A stretch of DNA of 64,000 nucleotides, taken from NCBI GenBank assembly GCA_965231035.1, contig OZ246409.1, positions 338,075 through 402,074 on the forward strand, in the 5' to 3' direction. This document shows positions 47,836 through 55,115 of this stretch, in pieces. The DNA is from an uncultured Muribaculaceae bacterium. Lineage in GTDB: Bacteria; Pseudomonadota; Alphaproteobacteria; Rs-D84. The position numbers and the translations under genes were made by a program. The notes below the pieces were generated by a model. It was not told the DNA's origin, searched no databases, and was given only the letters and a program-made list of their open reading frames with translations. Each line of letters starts with the position of its first letter. Position 1 is the first letter of the stretch.

Positions 47836-48498
47836 TTACTTTGGATTATATCCAAAAATATCACGTTCACCCCAATCCATATCAATCGAGCAACGGGTTG
47901 GTAAAAATTCAAAACATTTTTTTGCCAAATCAAATCTGTTTTTATCACGCAATTCGTCGGTCAGATAATCTTTCAGCATATGCAAATATAAAACATCTGT
48001 GGCGGCATATTTTTGCTGGTTCTTGGTCAATTTTTTGGTCCAGTCTGAACAAGTCTCGGACCCGTCCATTTCAATTTTAAATAACTCACGCAATACATTG
48101 TGAAGTGCATGACTTTTTTTCGGACGTGCCAGCAAGACACCAATTTTTGTGCAAAAAACAGGCATTGTCCACACGCCTAATCTTTTATAAATCATCAGTA
48201 TATCCATTCTGGCATAATGAAATATTTTTGTAATTTTTGGATTAGATAAAACCTTTTTCAAATTTGGGTATTCTTGGTTATCACGAATTTGTACCAGATA
48301 AAAATCATCACTGTCGCGGGCGCGTAACTGCACCAAACATAAATGATCACCCTTGACATCCAATCCAGTCAATTCTGTATCAACGGCCAAATCAGTGGTA
48401 TTAGACAAATCCACAACTTGCGCATCCGACAAATCATTTTGTAAATAAATTATGTTCATTTTATTTTCTTTTTTATTTATTCCTTCTGGCCAGTGCAA
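47836..48498 (-). CDS. 3'-5' exonuclease, RNase D-like DEDDy domain protein (start uncertain)
   Basis: Exo I (DTELTGL) and Exo III (YAATD) motifs. Confidence 0.6.
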   Translation of the reverse strand: MHWPEGINKKENKMNIIYLQNDLSDAQVVDLSNTTDLAVDTELTGLDVKGDHLCLVQLRARDSDDFYLVQIRDNQEYPNLKKVLSNPKITKIFHYARMDILMIYKRLGVWTMPVFCTKIGVLLARPKKSHALHNVLRELFKIEMDGSETCSDWTKKLTKNQQKYAATDVLYLHMLKDYLTDELRDKNRFDLAKKCFEFLPTRCSIDMDWGERDIFGYNPK

Positions 48499-48928
48499 TT
48501 GCGTTTTCCAAAATTATTCTGGCTGATTCAGAATCCAATTTTTGTTTCAGTTTTTTATCGCCACGCAAATTTTCTTCGGCTTCAAAACTGGTTAAATTTT
48601 CTTCTGTGAAAAAAATCGGTAAATTTAATTTATCGGATAAACTTTGTGCGAATTCCCTGACCTGTTTTGTTGTGTCCGATTCAGAACCATCAGATCTGAT
48701 TGGTAACCCAATTACAACTGCAACGATTTTTTCTTCACCTGCTGTCTTTACAATTTTTTCTACCAAAGACTCTTTACCAACCACAATCTGGGGTCTGGTA
48801 AAGATAAATTCTTGTTTTTCGTCCGAAACCGCCAATCCAACCCGACGCGCACCCCAATCAATTCCCAACAGTCGACCTATGCTTGGAAAGTCCTTGAAAT
48901 CTGATGAAATCATTGTATAATTCGTCAT
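48473..48928 (-). CDS. ruvX: putative pre-16S rRNA nuclease / Holliday-junction-resolvase-like YqgF (RuvX)
   Basis: LLGIDWGARRVGLAVSD RNaseH-fold start. The tracked ORF is over-extended upstream across gatC. Confidence 0.75.
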   Translation of the reverse strand: MTNYTMISSDFKDFPSIGRLLGIDWGARRVGLAVSDEKQEFIFTRPQIVVGKESLVEKIVKTAGEEKIVAVVIGLPIRSDGSESDTTKQVREFAQSLSDKLNLPIFFTEENLTSFEAEENLRGDKKLKQKLDSESARIILENAIALARRNK

Positions 48929-48950
48929 ACTTTTAATAATAGGACCAACA

Positions 48951-49244
48951 ATGTCATTTAGCAAGCAACAATTGCAGAAATTTGCCCATCTTATCCGCAT
49001 AGAAATTCCTGATGAAAAACTGGAAGCGATGAAAATTGATTCAGTGATTGAATGGCTGGATAAATTACAAAAAATTGATACCCATGGTGTTGAACCTATG
49101 TTGTCACCGGTTGAACATTCTTTGCCACGCCGCGAAGATGTCGTCACACAGGAAAACATTCGTGATTTGTTGTTAAAGAATGCCCCAGATGACGCTGGCA
49201 AACGCACAGGATACTTTGCCGTTCCAAAAGTTATGGATGAATAA
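48951..49244 (+). CDS. gatC: Glu-tRNA(Gln) amidotransferase subunit C
   Basis: 97 aa; overlaps and precedes gatA. Confidence 0.8.
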   Translation: MSFSKQQLQKFAHLIRIEIPDEKLEAMKIDSVIEWLDKLQKIDTHGVEPMLSPVEHSLPRREDVVTQENIRDLLLKNAPDDAGKRTGYFAVPKVMDE

Positions 49245-49245
49245 A

Positions 49246-50715
49246 ATGAAAAATTTAACTGACCTGACAATTACCGAAGCTTTACATAAATTAAAATCGC
49301 GTGAAATTACTGCGACCGAACTGACACGTGCCTATTTGGACCGAATTGAAAAATTTGGCGACAAATTAAACTGTTATATTACTTTGACACCTGAACGTGC
49401 CTTGGCTGATGCGGCTGAATCTGATAAACGTTATGATGCTGGTAATCCACTGCCACTGGATGGAATTCCAATTGGAATGAAGGATTTATTTGCCACACGT
49501 GGTATTCGTACAACAGCTGCCTCAAAAATATTGGAAAATTTTGTTCCAGAATATGAATCGACTGTTTCACAAAAATTTATTGATGCCGGTACTGTGTTAT
49601 TAGGAAAAACAAATCTGGATGAATTTGCAATGGGTACTTTCAGCAAGACCAGTTTTTTCGGGGCCCCAGTCAGTCCATATCAAATTGAAAATAAATTAAC
49701 CGCCGGTGGATCATCCGGTGGTACAACCAGCGCAGTTGCCGCAGGACTTGCAATTGGTGGAACCGGAACAGATACCGGTGGATCAATTCGTTTTCCTGCT
49801 GCAATCACTGGATTAGTCGGAATGAAACCGACATATGGACTATGTTCACGTTGGGGCTGTGTCGCATTTGCAAGCAGTCTGGACACACCGGGTCCAATCG
49901 CAAGAACTGTTGATGACACAGCATTATTATTGTCAGCAATGGCTGGATATGATGAAAAAGATTCAACATCGGCAAATGCTGGATTTTATGTAAAAGATGA
50001 ATTACCGAAAGGCGGATTAAATAAGTTAAAAATCGGCGTAATCAAAGAATTTGATTCTGTTGAAATATCCGCTGACATGAAAAAATTATTTGATGAACGA
50101 ATTGAAGATTTGAAAAAATCAGGTGCAGAAATTGTATCGGTTTCAATTCCAAACATTTTGGACGCTTTGGCGGCTTATTACATTATTGCCCCGGCCGAGG
50201 CATCATCTAACCTGGCACGATATGACGGTATGCGTTATGGATTGCGGGTTCCCGGCAAAGATTTAATAGATACCTATAAGAAAACCCGTGCGGCTGGATT
50301 TGGCGAAGAAGTCCAACGCCGCATGATTGTTGGTACCGCCGTGCTGTCATCCGAAAGTTACGAGGTTTACTTTATGCAGGCGGCTCGTGTTCGCAGACTG
50401 ATTGCGGACGCATTCAATCGTGCATTTGAACAATGTGACTTGATTGTATGTCCTTCTAGTGCCGGAACTGCCCTGCCTTTGGATTCAGATTTAACACCAT
50501 TGGAATATTATGCTTTGGATTTGTTCACAGTTGCAATGAATCTGGCTGGAATTCCAGCATGCAGTGTTCCATGCGGATTGGCGAAAAATGGTCTGCCATT
50601 GGGAATGCAGGTCGTAGGAAACAAATTTGACGATATGCGCGTATTGCAATTGGCAAAACATATTGAAGAATTTGCAAGTCTAGATAACAGACCAAGCAAG
50701 GTTATGGGAAAATAA
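49246..50715 (+). CDS. gatA: Glu-tRNA(Gln) amidotransferase subunit A
   Basis: Amidase signature GGSSGGTTSAVAAG...GTDTGGSIR. Confidence 0.9.
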   Translation: MKNLTDLTITEALHKLKSREITATELTRAYLDRIEKFGDKLNCYITLTPERALADAAESDKRYDAGNPLPLDGIPIGMKDLFATRGIRTTAASKILENFVPEYESTVSQKFIDAGTVLLGKTNLDEFAMGTFSKTSFFGAPVSPYQIENKLTAGGSSGGTTSAVAAGLAIGGTGTDTGGSIRFPAAITGLVGMKPTYGLCSRWGCVAFASSLDTPGPIARTVDDTALLLSAMAGYDEKDSTSANAGFYVKDELPKGGLNKLKIGVIKEFDSVEISADMKKLFDERIEDLKKSGAEIVSVSIPNILDALAAYYIIAPAEASSNLARYDGMRYGLRVPGKDLIDTYKKTRAAGFGEEVQRRMIVGTAVLSSESYEVYFMQAARVRRLIADAFNRAFEQCDLIVCPSSAGTALPLDSDLTPLEYYALDLFTVAMNLAGIPACSVPCGLAKNGLPLGMQVVGNKFDDMRVLQLAKHIEEFASLDNRPSKVMGK

Positions 50716-50745
50716 AAAAACCGCCAAGGATGGCGATTTAAGGTC

Positions 50746-50821
50746 TGGTGGCTGGGAACGGAATCGAACCGCTGACACAGGGATTTTCAGTCCCTTGCTC
50801 TACCAACTGAGCTACCCAGCC
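50746..50821 (-). tRNA. tRNA-Phe (anticodon GAA)
   Basis: Reverse complement: GGCTGGG acceptor, GTAGCTCAGTTGGTAGAGC D-arm, anticodon loop CTGAAAA, GGTTCGATTCC T-arm, CCA encoded. Confidence 0.9.
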
Positions 50822-50878
50822 GAAAACAGAACGGATTTGATAATAAAGCACAGGATTATAAAAATCAAGGAAAAATGA

Positions 50879-51391
50879 ATGCCAAGTATGTCAAAAATTA
50901 TTTATCATGGAAGTGCGACAAAATTATCAAAGGGTGACATTATGCACCCATGCAAGTCTTTTGATTCAGATTTAAAGTGCGAGATATCTGCTGTTTTTGC
51001 TACACCAGATTTTGATTATGCCAAGAAATTTGCAATTACCAGTTTGTTAAAAGGACATGGTATGTTGTGGATTAATAATAACAAGATAATTTTTCAAAAC
51101 CTCAAACATAATATAAATCCTATGTTTTTTGTATTTGAAATCAACAGTGACGGGTTCCAATTAGACACTCGTGAAGAATATTTTTACGAAGGCGAAAAAG
51201 AAATATTAAATGTTCATGAATTCAATTTATTAACGGAAGCTGAAAAATCACATCTGGAAATATACGAATTCAATGAATTTGATGTATCCATTGATAAAAA
51301 CCTGACTATGCCAGAACGTATAAAAAACTTTGACAACATGTTAGAAAAGAAACAATATCACAAAGTTGATATAACTAGTTTAATAGGATAA
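50879..51391 (+). CDS. hypothetical protein (insert between gatA and gatB); speculative H-Y-E-type ADP-ribosyltransferase-like motifs
   Basis: 170 aa. N-terminal IIYHGS, later DFDYAKKF and EEYFYEGEKE, which is weak and spacing-only resemblance. Confidence 0.35.
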   Translation: MPSMSKIIYHGSATKLSKGDIMHPCKSFDSDLKCEISAVFATPDFDYAKKFAITSLLKGHGMLWINNNKIIFQNLKHNINPMFFVFEINSDGFQLDTREEYFYEGEKEILNVHEFNLLTEAEKSHLEIYEFNEFDVSIDKNLTMPERIKNFDNMLEKKQYHKVDITSLIG

Positions 51392-51408
51392 AAAAAAAGA
51401 ATTATAAA

Positions 51409-52125
51409 ATGTTTGGCAAAAATTTGTTTAAATTTTACCTAGATGAATTGGGCGAATATAGAACTTTACTTGGCATGCTTGGTGGTCAAGATGCCAGCAA
51501 TACTGTTAATCGTGCAGACCAATATGGAATCCCCGCTGACATAGCATCAAAGGTAAAATATGGAAAAGATTGCCCAGAACTTAAATTCTTTTTACATCAA
51601 AAATATAAAGAATTCAGTGCAGAATTAAAACAATCTTTAAAATTTCATAAAAAGTTTTGGAAAAAAAATAGTCCTTTTTATAAAGAAAAAATTGAAAGAA
51701 TCTTAGGGCACAAAATGCCAACTTACTCGATCAGGCTTAACATACAAACAGGCGGTATCAGTAATTGGTCTGGTACAAATATTTCAATTAACGCTTTTGA
51801 ATATCTTCAAAGATTCAAAACTGGACATATGATTCGGGATATTATTTGGGAAAGTATGCTTTCGCAAACTTTTATTGATATACGTAAAAAGCATTCAAAA
51901 AAAGTCATTAACGATTTTAATGTTTGGGGAATTTCTGAATTGACAGCAACCATTGGAATTTATCAAACAGATATTTCCCCAACAAGCGTTTGGGATATTG
52001 GATATAAAGAACTTGTTCTTTATCAGAATAAAATTCGCGAACTTTATCGAAATCGTAAAAACTTTGAAGATTATTTAGATAAAGTTGTAGAATATTTTAA
52101 GAAAAATCCATTAGAAGGAAAATAA
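51409..52125 (+). CDS. hypothetical protein (second gene of the gatA-gatB insert)
   Basis: 238 aa, K-rich, no recognised domain. Confidence 0.35.
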   Translation: MFGKNLFKFYLDELGEYRTLLGMLGGQDASNTVNRADQYGIPADIASKVKYGKDCPELKFFLHQKYKEFSAELKQSLKFHKKFWKKNSPFYKEKIERILGHKMPTYSIRLNIQTGGISNWSGTNISINAFEYLQRFKTGHMIRDIIWESMLSQTFIDIRKKHSKKVINDFNVWGISELTATIGIYQTDISPTSVWDIGYKELVLYQNKIRELYRNRKNFEDYLDKVVEYFKKNPLEGK

Positions 52126-52128
52126 GTT

Positions 52129-53649
52129 ATGACATACACAATACACGGAAAGACTGGTGAATGGGAACTGGTTATTGGATTAGAAACCCATATAGAGGTT
52201 ACAAGCCGCAGCAAATTATTCAGCGGAGCTTCTGCTGACTATAACCCATCGGTTCCTGCCAATACTCAGGTATCTTTTGTGGATGCCGCTATGCCCGGAA
52301 TGTTGCCGGTTTTAAATGAATTTTGTGTAGAACAAGCGATTCGTATGGGATTGGGTCTGAATGCCCAGATTTCTAAACGCAGCAAGTTTGCACGTAAACA
52401 ATATTTTTATCCTGACCTACCCCAAGGATACCAGATTTCACAACCAGCCGAAGAACCGCCAATTGTCGGCCGCGGTCATATTGAAATTATTGGCGATGAT
52501 GGTAATCCAAAAAAGATTTTTATAGAACGTGCACACTTGGAACAAGATGCTGGAAAATTAAAACATGATGCACATCCAACCAAATCAATGGCTGATTACA
52601 ATCGTACTGGTGTTGCATTGCTGGAAATTGTTACTTTCCTGGATACAAAAAACCCAGAAAATAATTCATATATAACCAGTCCCGATGAAGCAGAAAAATA
52701 CCTGCGTGAAATTCGTGACATTGCACGCGCCTTGGGTGTATCAAATGCAAATATGGAAGAAGGTTCAATGCGCGCGGACGTTAATGTTTCTGTACGTCGC
52801 GTTGGTGAAAAAAAGTTTGGTACCCGCACCGAAACTAAAAATATGGTGTCTTTTAAATTTATTAAAACAGCTATTGAATTTGAGGCACGTCGTCAAATAG
52901 AAATCCTGGAATCAGGCGGTACTGTTTCCCAAGATACTATGCATTATAACCAAGATTCCGGTACAACATCTGTAATGCGCAGCAAAGAAGATGCTTTGGA
53001 TTATCGTTATTTTCCAGATCCGGATTTATTGCCATTAATTATTACTGATGAAACAATTGAACGCATACGTGGCACTTTACCCGAATTACCATCTGCACGT
53101 CGTGCACGTTACATTGGCGAACTAGGATTATCAGAATATGATTCGGCTCGTTTAACCGAAAGCGTAGAAATTTCCAAATGGTTTGAATCTGCCCTGGGGA
53201 ATAAACCAGAACGTGCCAAGGCAATCGCAAACTGGATGATTTCAGAACTTTTTGCACACCCGGAAAACTTTGTTTTGGACGAATCGGAACAACGTGATGA
53301 ATCTATGCGGATAATTACCCCTTCAGATTTGGCAGAATTGGTAGATATGATTTCCGACGGCGATATAAACGGAAAAATGGCCAAAGACATATTTATCAAA
53401 ATGTTGGATGGCGAATCTGGGTCACCAAAACAAATCGCTGATAAGTTCGGATTAAAACAAATGTCAGATACAAGTGCAATTGTTGCTGCGGTGAATGATG
53501 TCATCGCCAAAAATTCATCCCAGGTTGAACAATATAAAGCTGGAAAAATAGGATTAATTGGATTCTTTGTGGGTGCCGTTATGAAGACAACAAATGGTGC
53601 CGCAAATCCCGAAACTGTGAATAAAATTCTGAGAGAGAAGTTAGGCTAA
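52129..53649 (+). CDS. gatB: Glu-tRNA(Gln) amidotransferase subunit B
   Basis: 506 aa; GatB N-terminal catalytic and C-terminal YqeY-like domains. Confidence 0.9.
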   Translation: MTYTIHGKTGEWELVIGLETHIEVTSRSKLFSGASADYNPSVPANTQVSFVDAAMPGMLPVLNEFCVEQAIRMGLGLNAQISKRSKFARKQYFYPDLPQGYQISQPAEEPPIVGRGHIEIIGDDGNPKKIFIERAHLEQDAGKLKHDAHPTKSMADYNRTGVALLEIVTFLDTKNPENNSYITSPDEAEKYLREIRDIARALGVSNANMEEGSMRADVNVSVRRVGEKKFGTRTETKNMVSFKFIKTAIEFEARRQIEILESGGTVSQDTMHYNQDSGTTSVMRSKEDALDYRYFPDPDLLPLIITDETIERIRGTLPELPSARRARYIGELGLSEYDSARLTESVEISKWFESALGNKPERAKAIANWMISELFAHPENFVLDESEQRDESMRIITPSDLAELVDMISDGDINGKMAKDIFIKMLDGESGSPKQIADKFGLKQMSDTSAIVAAVNDVIAKNSSQVEQYKAGKIGLIGFFVGAVMKTTNGAANPETVNKILREKLG

Positions 53650-53662
53650 AAAAGGATAAAAA

Positions 53663-53962
53663 ATGCCAGATATAACCTGTCCTTATACTTTTGATAAAAA
53701 TCAGCCGGACTTACAAAAGTTTTTCTCGGCTCAGCTTTGTGAAGATTGTGGTAAAGAACCAAATAAAGGCCAAGATTGCTGGAAGGTTCAAAATGCATTG
53801 TTAAATGGTAAAACAAGACATTATAAAGAGGCAATTAGAAACAACGGTTGGTATAATAACTATTCTGGTGAAAAAGTCTTTATTGAATTAAAAGAAGCAA
53901 AAGAAGCCATAAATAGAATCAAAAAACTCCTAGAAATTACAGAAAATATACACAAGAAATAA
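53663..53962 (+). CDS. small Cys4 (zinc-ribbon-like) hypothetical protein
   Basis: C6...C26xxC29...C39 spacing; 99 aa. Confidence 0.35.
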   Translation: MPDITCPYTFDKNQPDLQKFFSAQLCEDCGKEPNKGQDCWKVQNALLNGKTRHYKEAIRNNGWYNNYSGEKVFIELKEAKEAINRIKKLLEITENIHKK

Positions 53963-53963
53963 T

Positions 53964-54239
53964 ATGAACATTTCTGAAATACAAAATTCTGACGTACAAC
54001 CTGCACTTTCTAGTGTGACTATTTTTTTGATACTACTTCTTTCTAGCGGGGCTTTTACAATTAAAAAATCCCAGAAAAAACCTTTATATACCAGATTAAA
54101 CCCAGATTGGGTGTTTTATGGTTTTGCTAACATCAATAAATTTTACTTAACAGCGCCAGAGTACAAGCAAAATATGGGAAACTGTTATAAATCGCTTAAT
54201 AAATTTGTACCAAAATTAAAATTTCGAGAGAGATGTTAA
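53964..54239 (+). CDS. small membrane hypothetical protein
   Basis: 91 aa with one TM. Confidence 0.3.
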   Translation: MNISEIQNSDVQPALSSVTIFLILLLSSGAFTIKKSQKKPLYTRLNPDWVFYGFANINKFYLTAPEYKQNMGNCYKSLNKFVPKLKFRERC

Positions 54240-54305
54240 AAAAAATTATTAAAAAATTAACTGTGTAAAATCAGTTCTGATAATTAGTTAAAATATGGAT
54301 ATATA

Positions 54306-55115
54306 ATGATTGATAAAAAAAATGATTTACAGGCCGAAGGAGAAAATTTCCTTAAATGGGATTTTTTTAAAAACCCTTCTGTTATTTCTGATTTAATAAA
54401 CCCTGTTCAAAAAACAGTAAAAAAATTAATAAAAAAATCAAAAAAAGATCTTAGGATTATCGACCTTGGTACAGGTACAGGAATTATTATAAAAAATATA
54501 AAACAAAAAATAGAATCTCAAGAAAATAATAAGTTATATAACTTAATTTTTTATGGGGTTGATTGCTTAGATGAGCTTATTAAAAAAAATCAAGAGGAAG
54601 CACCTGATATAAAATGGATATGTTCTGATAATAAAAATTTACCATTTCGTGACCAATCTTTTGATATTGTAGTTATGCGAAACACTCTTCATTATGAAGA
54701 AAACTATGAAAATCAAAAAAAAGTTATATGTGAAGCATATAGAATATTAAAATATTCCGGATATATTATAGATTTTCAATCTTGTTTCCCTACCCTTTTG
54801 GAGACAAACCTGATTCGGAATATATATAGTGTACTGCCAAAAGCTATAAAAATGCAGACAATTTCAGAATTTAAAACATTACATAAAACAATCTTCGGTA
54901 ATGTGAAATTATTATCAAATCCAAATTCTAGAAATTTATTAGTTAGTAAAGATTTATTGACTAAAAGATATATGACAAAATTAGAGCAGTTGGAAATTAT
55001 ACGTAACAAGATTTTAGATATTCCAGAAAAAAATAGGCCAAACTTCCATATTTCTGAAAAAGATTTTTGGTTCACAATCCCGCAAAGAATAGTTAAATGT
55101 CAAAAAATAAAATAA
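54306..55115 (+). CDS. class I SAM-dependent methyltransferase (very AT-rich)
   Basis: IIDLGTGTGII motif I; DIVVMRNTLHY motif. Confidence 0.6.
   Translation: MIDKKNDLQAEGENFLKWDFFKNPSVISDLINPVQKTVKKLIKKSKKDLRIIDLGTGTGIIIKNIKQKIESQENNKLYNLIFYGVDCLDELIKKNQEEAPDIKWICSDNKNLPFRDQSFDIVVMRNTLHYEENYENQKKVICEAYRILKYSGYIIDFQSCFPTLLETNLIRNIYSVLPKAIKMQTISEFKTLHKTIFGNVKLLSNPNSRNLLVSKDLLTKRYMTKLEQLEIIRNKILDIPEKNRPNFHISEKDFWFTIPQRIVKCQKIK

Follow-up and report, generated by a model that had tools for sequence, protein, structure and literature searches.

An Arr-related ADP-ribosyltransferase-fold protein and a predicted zincin without zinc ligands upstream of gatB in an uncultured alphaproteobacterium

The rifamycin-inactivating enzyme Arr is an H-Y-D ADP-ribosyltransferase (ART), in which the three positions are H19, Y49 and D84 in the M. 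smegmatis protein; its 'real' cellular role is still debated, and in AcrIF11, another active ART, Phe takes the place of the Tyr (PMC8120803). In this paper we describe two genes, ORF1 and ORF2 (open reading frames, ORFs, of 170 and 238 amino acids, aa), that lie between gatA and gatB in a stretch of 64,000 nucleotides (nt), referred to as the window (contig OZ246409.1, positions 338,075 to 402,074), from an uncultured bacterium of the alphaproteobacterial lineage Rs-D84. An earlier reading made from the letters of the DNA, which we call the sequence-only reading, had proposed that the two genes form a small toxin/immunity or defence-like cassette lodged inside an essential operon. We favour, with moderate confidence, a different account: ORF1 would be an Arr-related ART and ORF2 a zincin without zinc ligands, and both would be old hitchhikers in the gatB unit rather than a toxin and its antidote.

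The AlphaFold2 model of ORF1 (predicted local distance difference test, pLDDT, 91.9) shows the split beta-sheet of the NAD+-binding ART fold, with the core starting at residue 7 on strand beta-1, and the three best Foldseek matches are all Arr structures (probability 0.99-1.0). The ART-like fold that had been suspected from the letters is thus borne out by the model. Other structural neighbours include the toxins TreX, TreTu and pertussis toxin. Pfam reports Arr-ms alone, over residues 9-55, at 12.6 bits against a gathering cut-off of 25 bits (E = 0.16); neither ORF1 nor ORF2 has a match above threshold in Pfam, NCBIfam, PADLOC or PHROGs, in agreement with the earlier remark that they show no housekeeping similarity. 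A PADLOC match of ORF1 to PDC-M13B (E = 0.018) was dismissed, as it covers the YHGS motif only and other family members do not have it.

A word-index homology search with ORF1 returned ORF1 itself and one relative of 87% identity only, while an exhaustive phmmer search of 1.84 billion clustered representatives (E <= 1e-3) yielded 28 family proteins with 24-53% identity; a repeat search with the family profile contributed just two new proteins, and a 30-member set was used for motif counts. The family is rare and is without a curated model in the libraries searched (Pfam, NCBIfam, PADLOC). Arr-ms is matched weakly by 11 of the 30 members (best E = 6.5e-4) and the NCBIfam rifampin_ARR models, again weakly, by up to six. 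When the family profile was compared with sequences in PDB, Arr came out best (2HW2/9IAF, E = 0.075), with YHGS and VFAT aligned to LHGT and IYIT of Arr, which sets H10 against the Arr His and F40 against the Arr Tyr. Given these weak Pfam and NCBIfam matches, the PDB profile search and the three leading Foldseek matches, we regard Arr as the nearest characterised relative of ORF1.

The conserved columns of the family are Y9-H10-G11-[ST]12, V39-F40-A41-T42, A48, F/Y51, Y/F84, F93, D96, E100 and Y101; they contain no Arg. H10 is kept in 28 of 29 members and G11 and S/T12 in all 29, which places an H-x-[ST] motif on beta-1. The position equivalent to the ART Tyr is F40 in 'AVFAT' (Phe in 28/30 and Tyr in 1/30; T42 in 27/30), and roughly 11 residues beyond it a further aromatic, F/Y51, is Phe in 22 members and Tyr in seven. 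D96 (29/30), E100 (23/30) and Y101 (27/30) lie just before the strand formed by residues 101-103. The sequence-only reading had picked out H10 in IIYHGS and E100-Y101 in EEY, both of which belong to these columns; its candidate tyrosine, Y47 of DFDY, is conserved in only 9 of 30 members and gives way to F40.

ORF1 and Arr (PF12120; 2HW2, 9IAF, 9IBA) are alike in being small, stand-alone, cytoplasmic ART-fold proteins that need no antidote gene, and they have in common the N-terminal pattern hYHG[ST]...GD.L.P...h[YF]hT. From the sequences, both also appear to have an Asp after a 'GxF' turn (D84 in Arr, D96 in ORF1). We presume that these two residues correspond, on the local 'GxF..D' pattern and with Arr numbered as in PMC8120803. 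With the diphtheria-toxin/PARP-type H-Y-E ARTs, ORF1 shares the fold and the H-G-[ST] motif in beta-1. Its 'EEYFY' also resembles what we take to be the PARP1 strand around the catalytic Glu, 'NEYIVY'. ORF1 would accordingly be grouped as a small cytoplasmic NAD+-binding ART of the diphtheria-toxin/PARP/Arr (H-Y-E) clade, with H10 (of HG[ST]), F40 at the place of the Tyr, F/Y51, and either or both of D96 and E100 as its predicted catalytic residues. As Arr is H-Y-D and the active AcrIF11 has Phe, the combination of H10, F40 and D96 (plus E100) can, by analogy, be considered compatible with catalysis.

We think it most likely that ORF1, as a member of an Arr-related family, is active as a mono-ADP-ribosyltransferase that depends on NAD+ and is tolerated by its producer. 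It would transfer ADP-ribose from NAD+ to a target whose modification the producer tolerates, either a small molecule, as Arr does, or an endogenous regulatory target, and an antidote gene would therefore not be needed. No antidote gene co-varies with ORF1, and for this reason we prefer such a target to a self-toxic one.

ORF2 was modelled at a pLDDT of 89.9, and comparison of the model with PDB points to the fold of a zincin catalytic domain of the M1-peptidase type; a PDB sequence-profile search with ORF2 gave no match. Its family has 19 members, which share 42-88% identity with the protein of the window; many aromatic and charged residues are invariant, and HExxH is present in none of the 19. 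A long helix (residues 137-161) that follows the beta-sheet carries W147-E148-S-M-L151, which would occupy the HExxH site, and the next helix (169-189) carries the invariant E177, which may be the retained third-ligand Glu. On this model ORF2 would have lost both of the histidines that bind zinc; we read it as an inactive or non-canonical zincin, which probably serves as a non-proteolytic binding protein or pseudo-enzyme. ORF2 can be likened to the gluzincins (the catalytic domain of M1 aminopeptidase N, LTA4 hydrolase), to minimal zincins (Wss1, YbeY) and to the putative hydrolase 3CMN. Unlike the gluzincins and minimal zincins, it is a single domain of 238 aa with no HExxH and no predicted zinc site, and unlike these metallopeptidases it is restricted to one alphaproteobacterial group.

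The genes and other features of the locus are as follows.

48951-49244, plus strand: gatC, a 97-aa ORF, GatC by homology.
49237-50715, plus strand: gatA, matching Pfam Amidase (E = 5.6e-136).
50718-50739, minus strand: terminator-like hairpin and T-run, downstream of tRNA-Phe, between the tRNA and the gatA stop.
50746-50821, minus strand: tRNA-Phe(GAA), by ARAGORN and Rfam (RF00005, 71.9 bits).
50822-50878, no strand: 57-bp spacer separating the divergent tRNA-Phe and ORF1.
50879-51391, plus strand: ORF1, 170 aa, stand-alone ADP-ribosyltransferase-fold protein of an Arr-related, uncurated family.
51409-52125, plus strand: ORF2, 238 aa, zincin-fold (M1/gluzincin-like) protein without HExxH.
52129-53649, plus strand: gatB, matching GatB_N (E = 4e-104) and GatB_Yqey (E = 1e-41).

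All of these genes lie where the sequence-only reading had put them, with 1,413 bp between the gatA stop and the gatB start. The gat genes are identified by Pfam through the amidase domain of GatA and the GatB_N and GatB_Yqey domains of GatB, and for gatC through homologues called GatC (PF02686) at three loci of relatives (L001, L006 and L024; 69-74% identity). The start of gatA is either ATG 49237, which gives an 8-nt overlap with gatC, or ATG 49246, which abuts it. The public record annotates the products of ORF1 and ORF2 as 'hypothetical protein', and the tRNA is the sole match of the Rfam scan.

In the hairpin at 50718-50739, read on the minus strand, TTTTTATTTT comes after a stem of 9 bp; from its sequence the hairpin would act as the intrinsic terminator of tRNA-Phe. 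On the plus strand, no terminator-like site was found from ORF1 through the end of gatB. ORF1 and ORF2 are 17 nt apart, the ORF2 stop is 3 nt from the gatB start, and the gatB Shine-Dalgarno sequence, AAGGA, sits in the last codons of ORF2. We presume that the 57-bp spacer holds the promoter and ribosome-binding site of an ORF1-ORF2-gatB unit, although promoter-like matches within it are at chance level only; at L009, a locus of a close relative, the leader immediately before ORF2 matches this spacer with 94% identity. The gat genes would then form two units, gatC-gatA, ending at the convergent tRNA-Phe with its own terminator, and a separate unit of which gatB is the last cistron.

Comparison of the gatA-gatB synteny among relatives, which derive from gut and faecal metagenomes, showed both families upstream of gatB in several lineages, but with ORF1 and ORF2 occurring independently of one another. 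At L009 (84-94% nucleotide identity to the window) the order is minus-strand tRNA-Phe, ORF2 homologue, gatB, with ORF1 cleanly missing: the leader found before ORF1 in the window stands there before ORF2, so that the indel is gene-sized and without a scar. ORF1 is likewise absent from L001, from a horse-faeces metagenome-assembled genome (gatC, a 130-aa ORF, gatA, minus-strand tRNA-Phe, ORF2 homologue, gatB), and from L006 and L007 (gatC, gatA, RelB-YafQ, ORF2 homologue, gatB, the last two overlapping). The RelB-YafQ/ParE-type pair (L006 5434-5990, L007 1179-1735) takes the slot held by ORF1 in the window. Homologues of ORF2 are also found away from gatB, after adk at L003-L005, next to dciA at L023, between asmA-like and outer-membrane protein genes at L014 (CAG:495), and at L016 and L017 with no gat gene within 5 kb.

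Four loci show the converse, an ORF1 homologue with no ORF2. At L008 (91% nucleotide identity) a minus-strand HAD-hydrolase gene and minus-strand tRNA-Phe are followed by an ORF1 homologue of 87% identity, an unrelated 83-aa ORF in place of ORF2, and gatB. The order is gatA, an 87-aa ORF, ORF1 homologue (52% identity), gatB at L013, and hydrolase, methyltransferase, ORF1 homologue (49%), gatB at L012. A locus search with a 4-sequence ORF1 alignment yielded L024, on a 55%-GC contig, where gatC, a 214-aa ORF, gatA, a 104-aa ORF that we read from its sequence pattern as CutA-like, and an ORF1 homologue (46%) precede gatB. All close ORF1 homologues thus lie just 5' of gatB, 1-15 nt away at L012, L013 and L024 or separated from it by one small ORF, and what lies upstream of them is different each time (methyltransferase, 87-aa ORF, cutA by our reading, tRNA-Phe). 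The same tRNA-Phe, in the same orientation, stands at this junction at L001, L008 and L009. The window, L008 and L009 show three configurations even within one genus.

No partner gene is conserved with ORF1 or ORF2 across the loci compared. The small ORFs beside ORF1 homologues (87 aa at L013, 83 aa at L008, 104 aa at L024) were considered as antidotes and ruled out, as they are mutually unrelated. The divergence of ORF1 and of ORF2 scales with that of gatB. ORF2 is a lineage-conserved gene that would act independently of ORF1, and the two are separately dispensable.

Away from gatB, more distant relatives of ORF1 (23-37% identity) were found between lolA and pnuC (L018 and L019) and near rpiB and RidA (L010 and L011). 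At the first of these (L018 6001-6591, L019 1422-2012) the relative P0024, 37% identical, overlaps lolA upstream and pnuC downstream; pnuC is a gene for an NMN/nicotinamide-riboside transporter, and this context hints at a link between the ART family and NAD/nicotinamide traffic. Among other family members, P0028 and P0031 (L022 44-1249) have the ART domain fused to an HD phosphohydrolase domain, N- or C-terminally, and P0023 and P0025 have two ART domains in tandem. At L008 (1-2187) the block of tRNA-Phe, ORF1 homologue, 83-aa ORF and gatB follows the minus-strand gene of a 641-aa HAD-family hydrolase, and not gatA, so that gatB is physically separate from gatCA.

Both genes are under purifying selection. 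The ratio of nonsynonymous to synonymous substitution rates (dN/dS) is 0.14 for ORF1, between the window and the 87%-identical L008 homologue, and 0.135 for ORF2, between the window and L009; for gatB it is 0.06 among species-level relatives. With these values of about 0.14 and confident AlphaFold2 models, we consider ORF1 and ORF2 to be real genes.

The sequence-only reading had described both genes as strikingly AT-rich. This is correct relative to the gat genes (GC content 0.298 for ORF1 and 0.303 for ORF2, versus 0.41-0.42 for gatA and gatB) but does not make them outliers for this genome, since genes of the window have a mean GC of 0.357 (standard deviation 0.043) and 15% of them are as low. 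At third codon positions the GC content (GC3) is 0.275 for ORF1, 0.30-0.31 for gatA and gatB, and lower, at 0.218, for ORF2, while the residues F, Y, M, I, N and K (FYMINK) account for 41-43% of ORF1 and ORF2 and 26-29% of the gat proteins. Because ORF1 is near gatA and gatB in GC3 and the FYMINK fraction is high, most of the excess AT can be attributed to amino-acid composition. The pattern fits proteins under weak constraint in a genome rich in AT and is not a signature of foreign DNA. In addition, the GC content of the homologues follows the host (0.30 here, 0.34 at L013, 0.42 at L012 and 0.475 at L024). A foreign origin on grounds of AT-richness was rejected for the window on the basis of the GC3 of ORF1, which is near that of its flanks (ORF2 somewhat lower), and of this tracking of host GC.

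There is no integrase or transposase gene around ORF1 in the window, a repeat search around ORF1 produced short AT-rich matches at chance level only, and ORF1 lies on the 5' side of tRNA-Phe, not at the tRNA 3' end as for tRNA-site islands; the locus does not have the features of a mobile element or genomic island at a tRNA gene. A stretch of 19-20 nt that is similar ahead of both gene starts (D3/D4) is low-complexity leader and was not accepted as a target-site duplication. Scans of viral contigs for both families were empty, and PADLOC and PHROGs scans gave only chance-level matches for ORF1 and ORF2.

ORF1 and ORF2 do not look like recent mobile inserts; their families have probably long resided directly 5' of gatB in this clade. 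We propose that both genes evolve fast and are old occupants of the 5' portion of the gatB unit, where they would have been lost or swapped one gene at a time. With the promoter on one side of them and an essential gene on the other, deletions would survive only if exact and of gene size, and this position would account both for the persistence of the adjacency and for the precision of the indels ('operon hitchhiking'). Cassettes may also be exchanged laterally among relatives through recombination in the conserved gat flanks. The position of the locus is unusual but not alarming.

Several observations weigh against this account and need to be set beside it. The loci with ORF1 alone are short contigs (2-6 kb), and ORF2 could lie elsewhere in those genomes. 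Every lineage (L013, L012, L024, L001, L006) has homologues of ORF1 and ORF2 with a GC content 5-16 points lower than that of the gat genes beside them, with a sharp step in GC3 at L013 (0.32 versus 0.48-0.49 for the gat genes); such steps may mean that descent was not purely vertical and that relatives exchanged the genes laterally, and both weak constraint and repeated lateral exchange are possible causes of the low GC. The replacement of Tyr by Phe at the second motif position deviates from the canonical H-Y-E/D triad, and the catalytic acid predicted for ORF1 could be D96, E100 or both. For ORF2, the mapping of WESML to HExxH rests on the order of helices in the model and not on a residue-level structural alignment. 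Finally, most characterised bacterial ART-fold proteins of the size of ORF1 are toxins.

Among alternatives to a producer-tolerated ART, we looked at whether ORF1 may be an exported effector or toxin directed against a host or competitor, with a target absent from the producer and hence no need for an immunity gene. ART-fold effectors are common in host-associated bacteria (PMC8120803), the relatives come from gut and faecal metagenomes, ORF1 is present in some close relatives and absent from others as accessory effectors are, and a type IV secretion system coupling-protein gene lies near the locus at L006. ORF1 itself, however, has no signal peptide, and its catalytic beta-1 strand begins as early as residue 7; the window region holds no delivery domain (Rhs, PAAR or a type VI secretion system marker) and no adjacent secretion gene, and the position inside a housekeeping operon is conserved across lineages of 30% to 55% GC. 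We therefore regard export as unlikely.

Still less probable is that ORF1 is a true Arr orthologue, a resistance enzyme that inactivates rifamycin. Arr is the best PDB match both by sequence profile and by Foldseek, its Pfam and NCBIfam models are the only recurrent matches in the family, and ORF1 is small and stand-alone as Arr is, but the similarity is confined to the NAD-binding N-terminal half (residues 7-55). Besides its score below the cut-off, with no NCBIfam match for ORF1 itself, ORF1 differs from Arr in having only 11-16% identity in the structural alignment, Phe for Tyr at the second motif, an additional conserved E100-Y101, a different, helical C-terminal region of 55 residues in the model, and a genomic setting in front of gatB.

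The position beside tRNA-Phe and gatB could also be taken to mean that ORF1 is an ART acting on RNA, tRNA or GatCAB, by which it would modulate the indirect Gln/Asn-tRNA pathway; we consider this very unlikely. Tpt1/KptA is defined by an R-H-R-R tetrad and an N-terminal winged-helix, RNA-binding domain (PMC8120803), and ORF1 has neither; the core alone aligns. Close relatives (L009, L001, L006) have retained gatB but have no ORF1, more distant relatives of ORF1 stand elsewhere, at lolA-pnuC and rpiB/RidA, and operon hitchhiking accounts for the adjacency just as well.

Slightly weaker again, and likewise very unlikely in our view, is a type II toxin-antitoxin-like or defence cassette in which ORF1 is a self-toxic ART neutralised by ORF2: although ORF1 has an ART fold with toxins among its many structural neighbours, is tightly spaced with ORF2, and has a bona fide RelB-YafQ pair in the same junction at L006 and L007, several related lineages have homologues of both genes at the gatA-gatB junction, ORF1 and ORF2 are under purifying selection, the two occur independently, and they have no conserved partner, no integrase or repeats, and no defence-family or phage match. 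The earlier proposal is in this respect right about the junction, which does take cassettes, as RelB-YafQ attests, but is not supported for ORF1-ORF2 as one of them. ORF1 resembles DarTG, ParST/RES-Xre, MbcTA and the Rhs ART toxins of TreX/TriX and TreTu/TriTu in its ART fold and tightly linked downstream gene; unlike such ART toxin-antitoxin pairs, ORF1 and ORF2 do not show conserved adjacent co-occurrence. ORF2 is also unlike the known ART antidotes (macrodomain, ARH, Xre-DUF2384, MbcA) in having no Pfam, NCBIfam or PADLOC match and a zincin-like fold. An ART fold and a neighbouring unknown gene do not of themselves make a toxin-antitoxin system.

Under the reading that we prefer, in which both genes are long-term residents of the gatB unit, two families would be new: an Arr-related ART family in which the catalytic triad is conserved in an H-F-D/E form, beyond the curated models in the libraries searched, and a zincin-fold family without HExxH at a conserved position in front of gatB. 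A sister family of Arr in non-antibiotic contexts could help to define the role of small stand-alone bacterial ARTs, and the locus would be a clear example of accessory genes lasting long between a promoter and an essential gene.

Interruption of the gat cluster in this clade occurs at more than one junction. The gatC-gatA junction holds the 130-aa ORF at L001 (3948-4340) and the 214-aa ORF, which is Cys-rich, at L024 (1213-1857); gatA of L024 (1876-3609) encodes 577 aa and is about 85 aa longer. Upstream of the cluster, a 265-aa minus-strand ORF of the window (48473-49270) that overlaps gatC is an over-extended ruvX, whose homologues have 139-146 aa at L001 and L006. The ruvX and gatC genes are divergent, and immediately ahead of gatC, at 48894-48921, stands the best promoter-like match of the region (11/12).

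Downstream of gatB, the interval up to miaB (53663-55115) contains three further AT-rich ORFs of 99, 91 and 269 aa. The 91-aa ORF has a hydrophobic stretch and is putatively membrane-spanning. The 269-aa ORF, with a GC content of 0.254, is a class I S-adenosylmethionine (SAM) methyltransferase that overlaps the start of miaB by 19 nt and matches Methyltransf_11 (E = 5e-15) and the SAM domain of PADLOC mad2 (E = 6e-10). This interval too differs among relatives, with ORFs of 95 aa, 199 aa and, on the minus strand, 211 aa at L009, and of 61 aa and 117 aa at L001.

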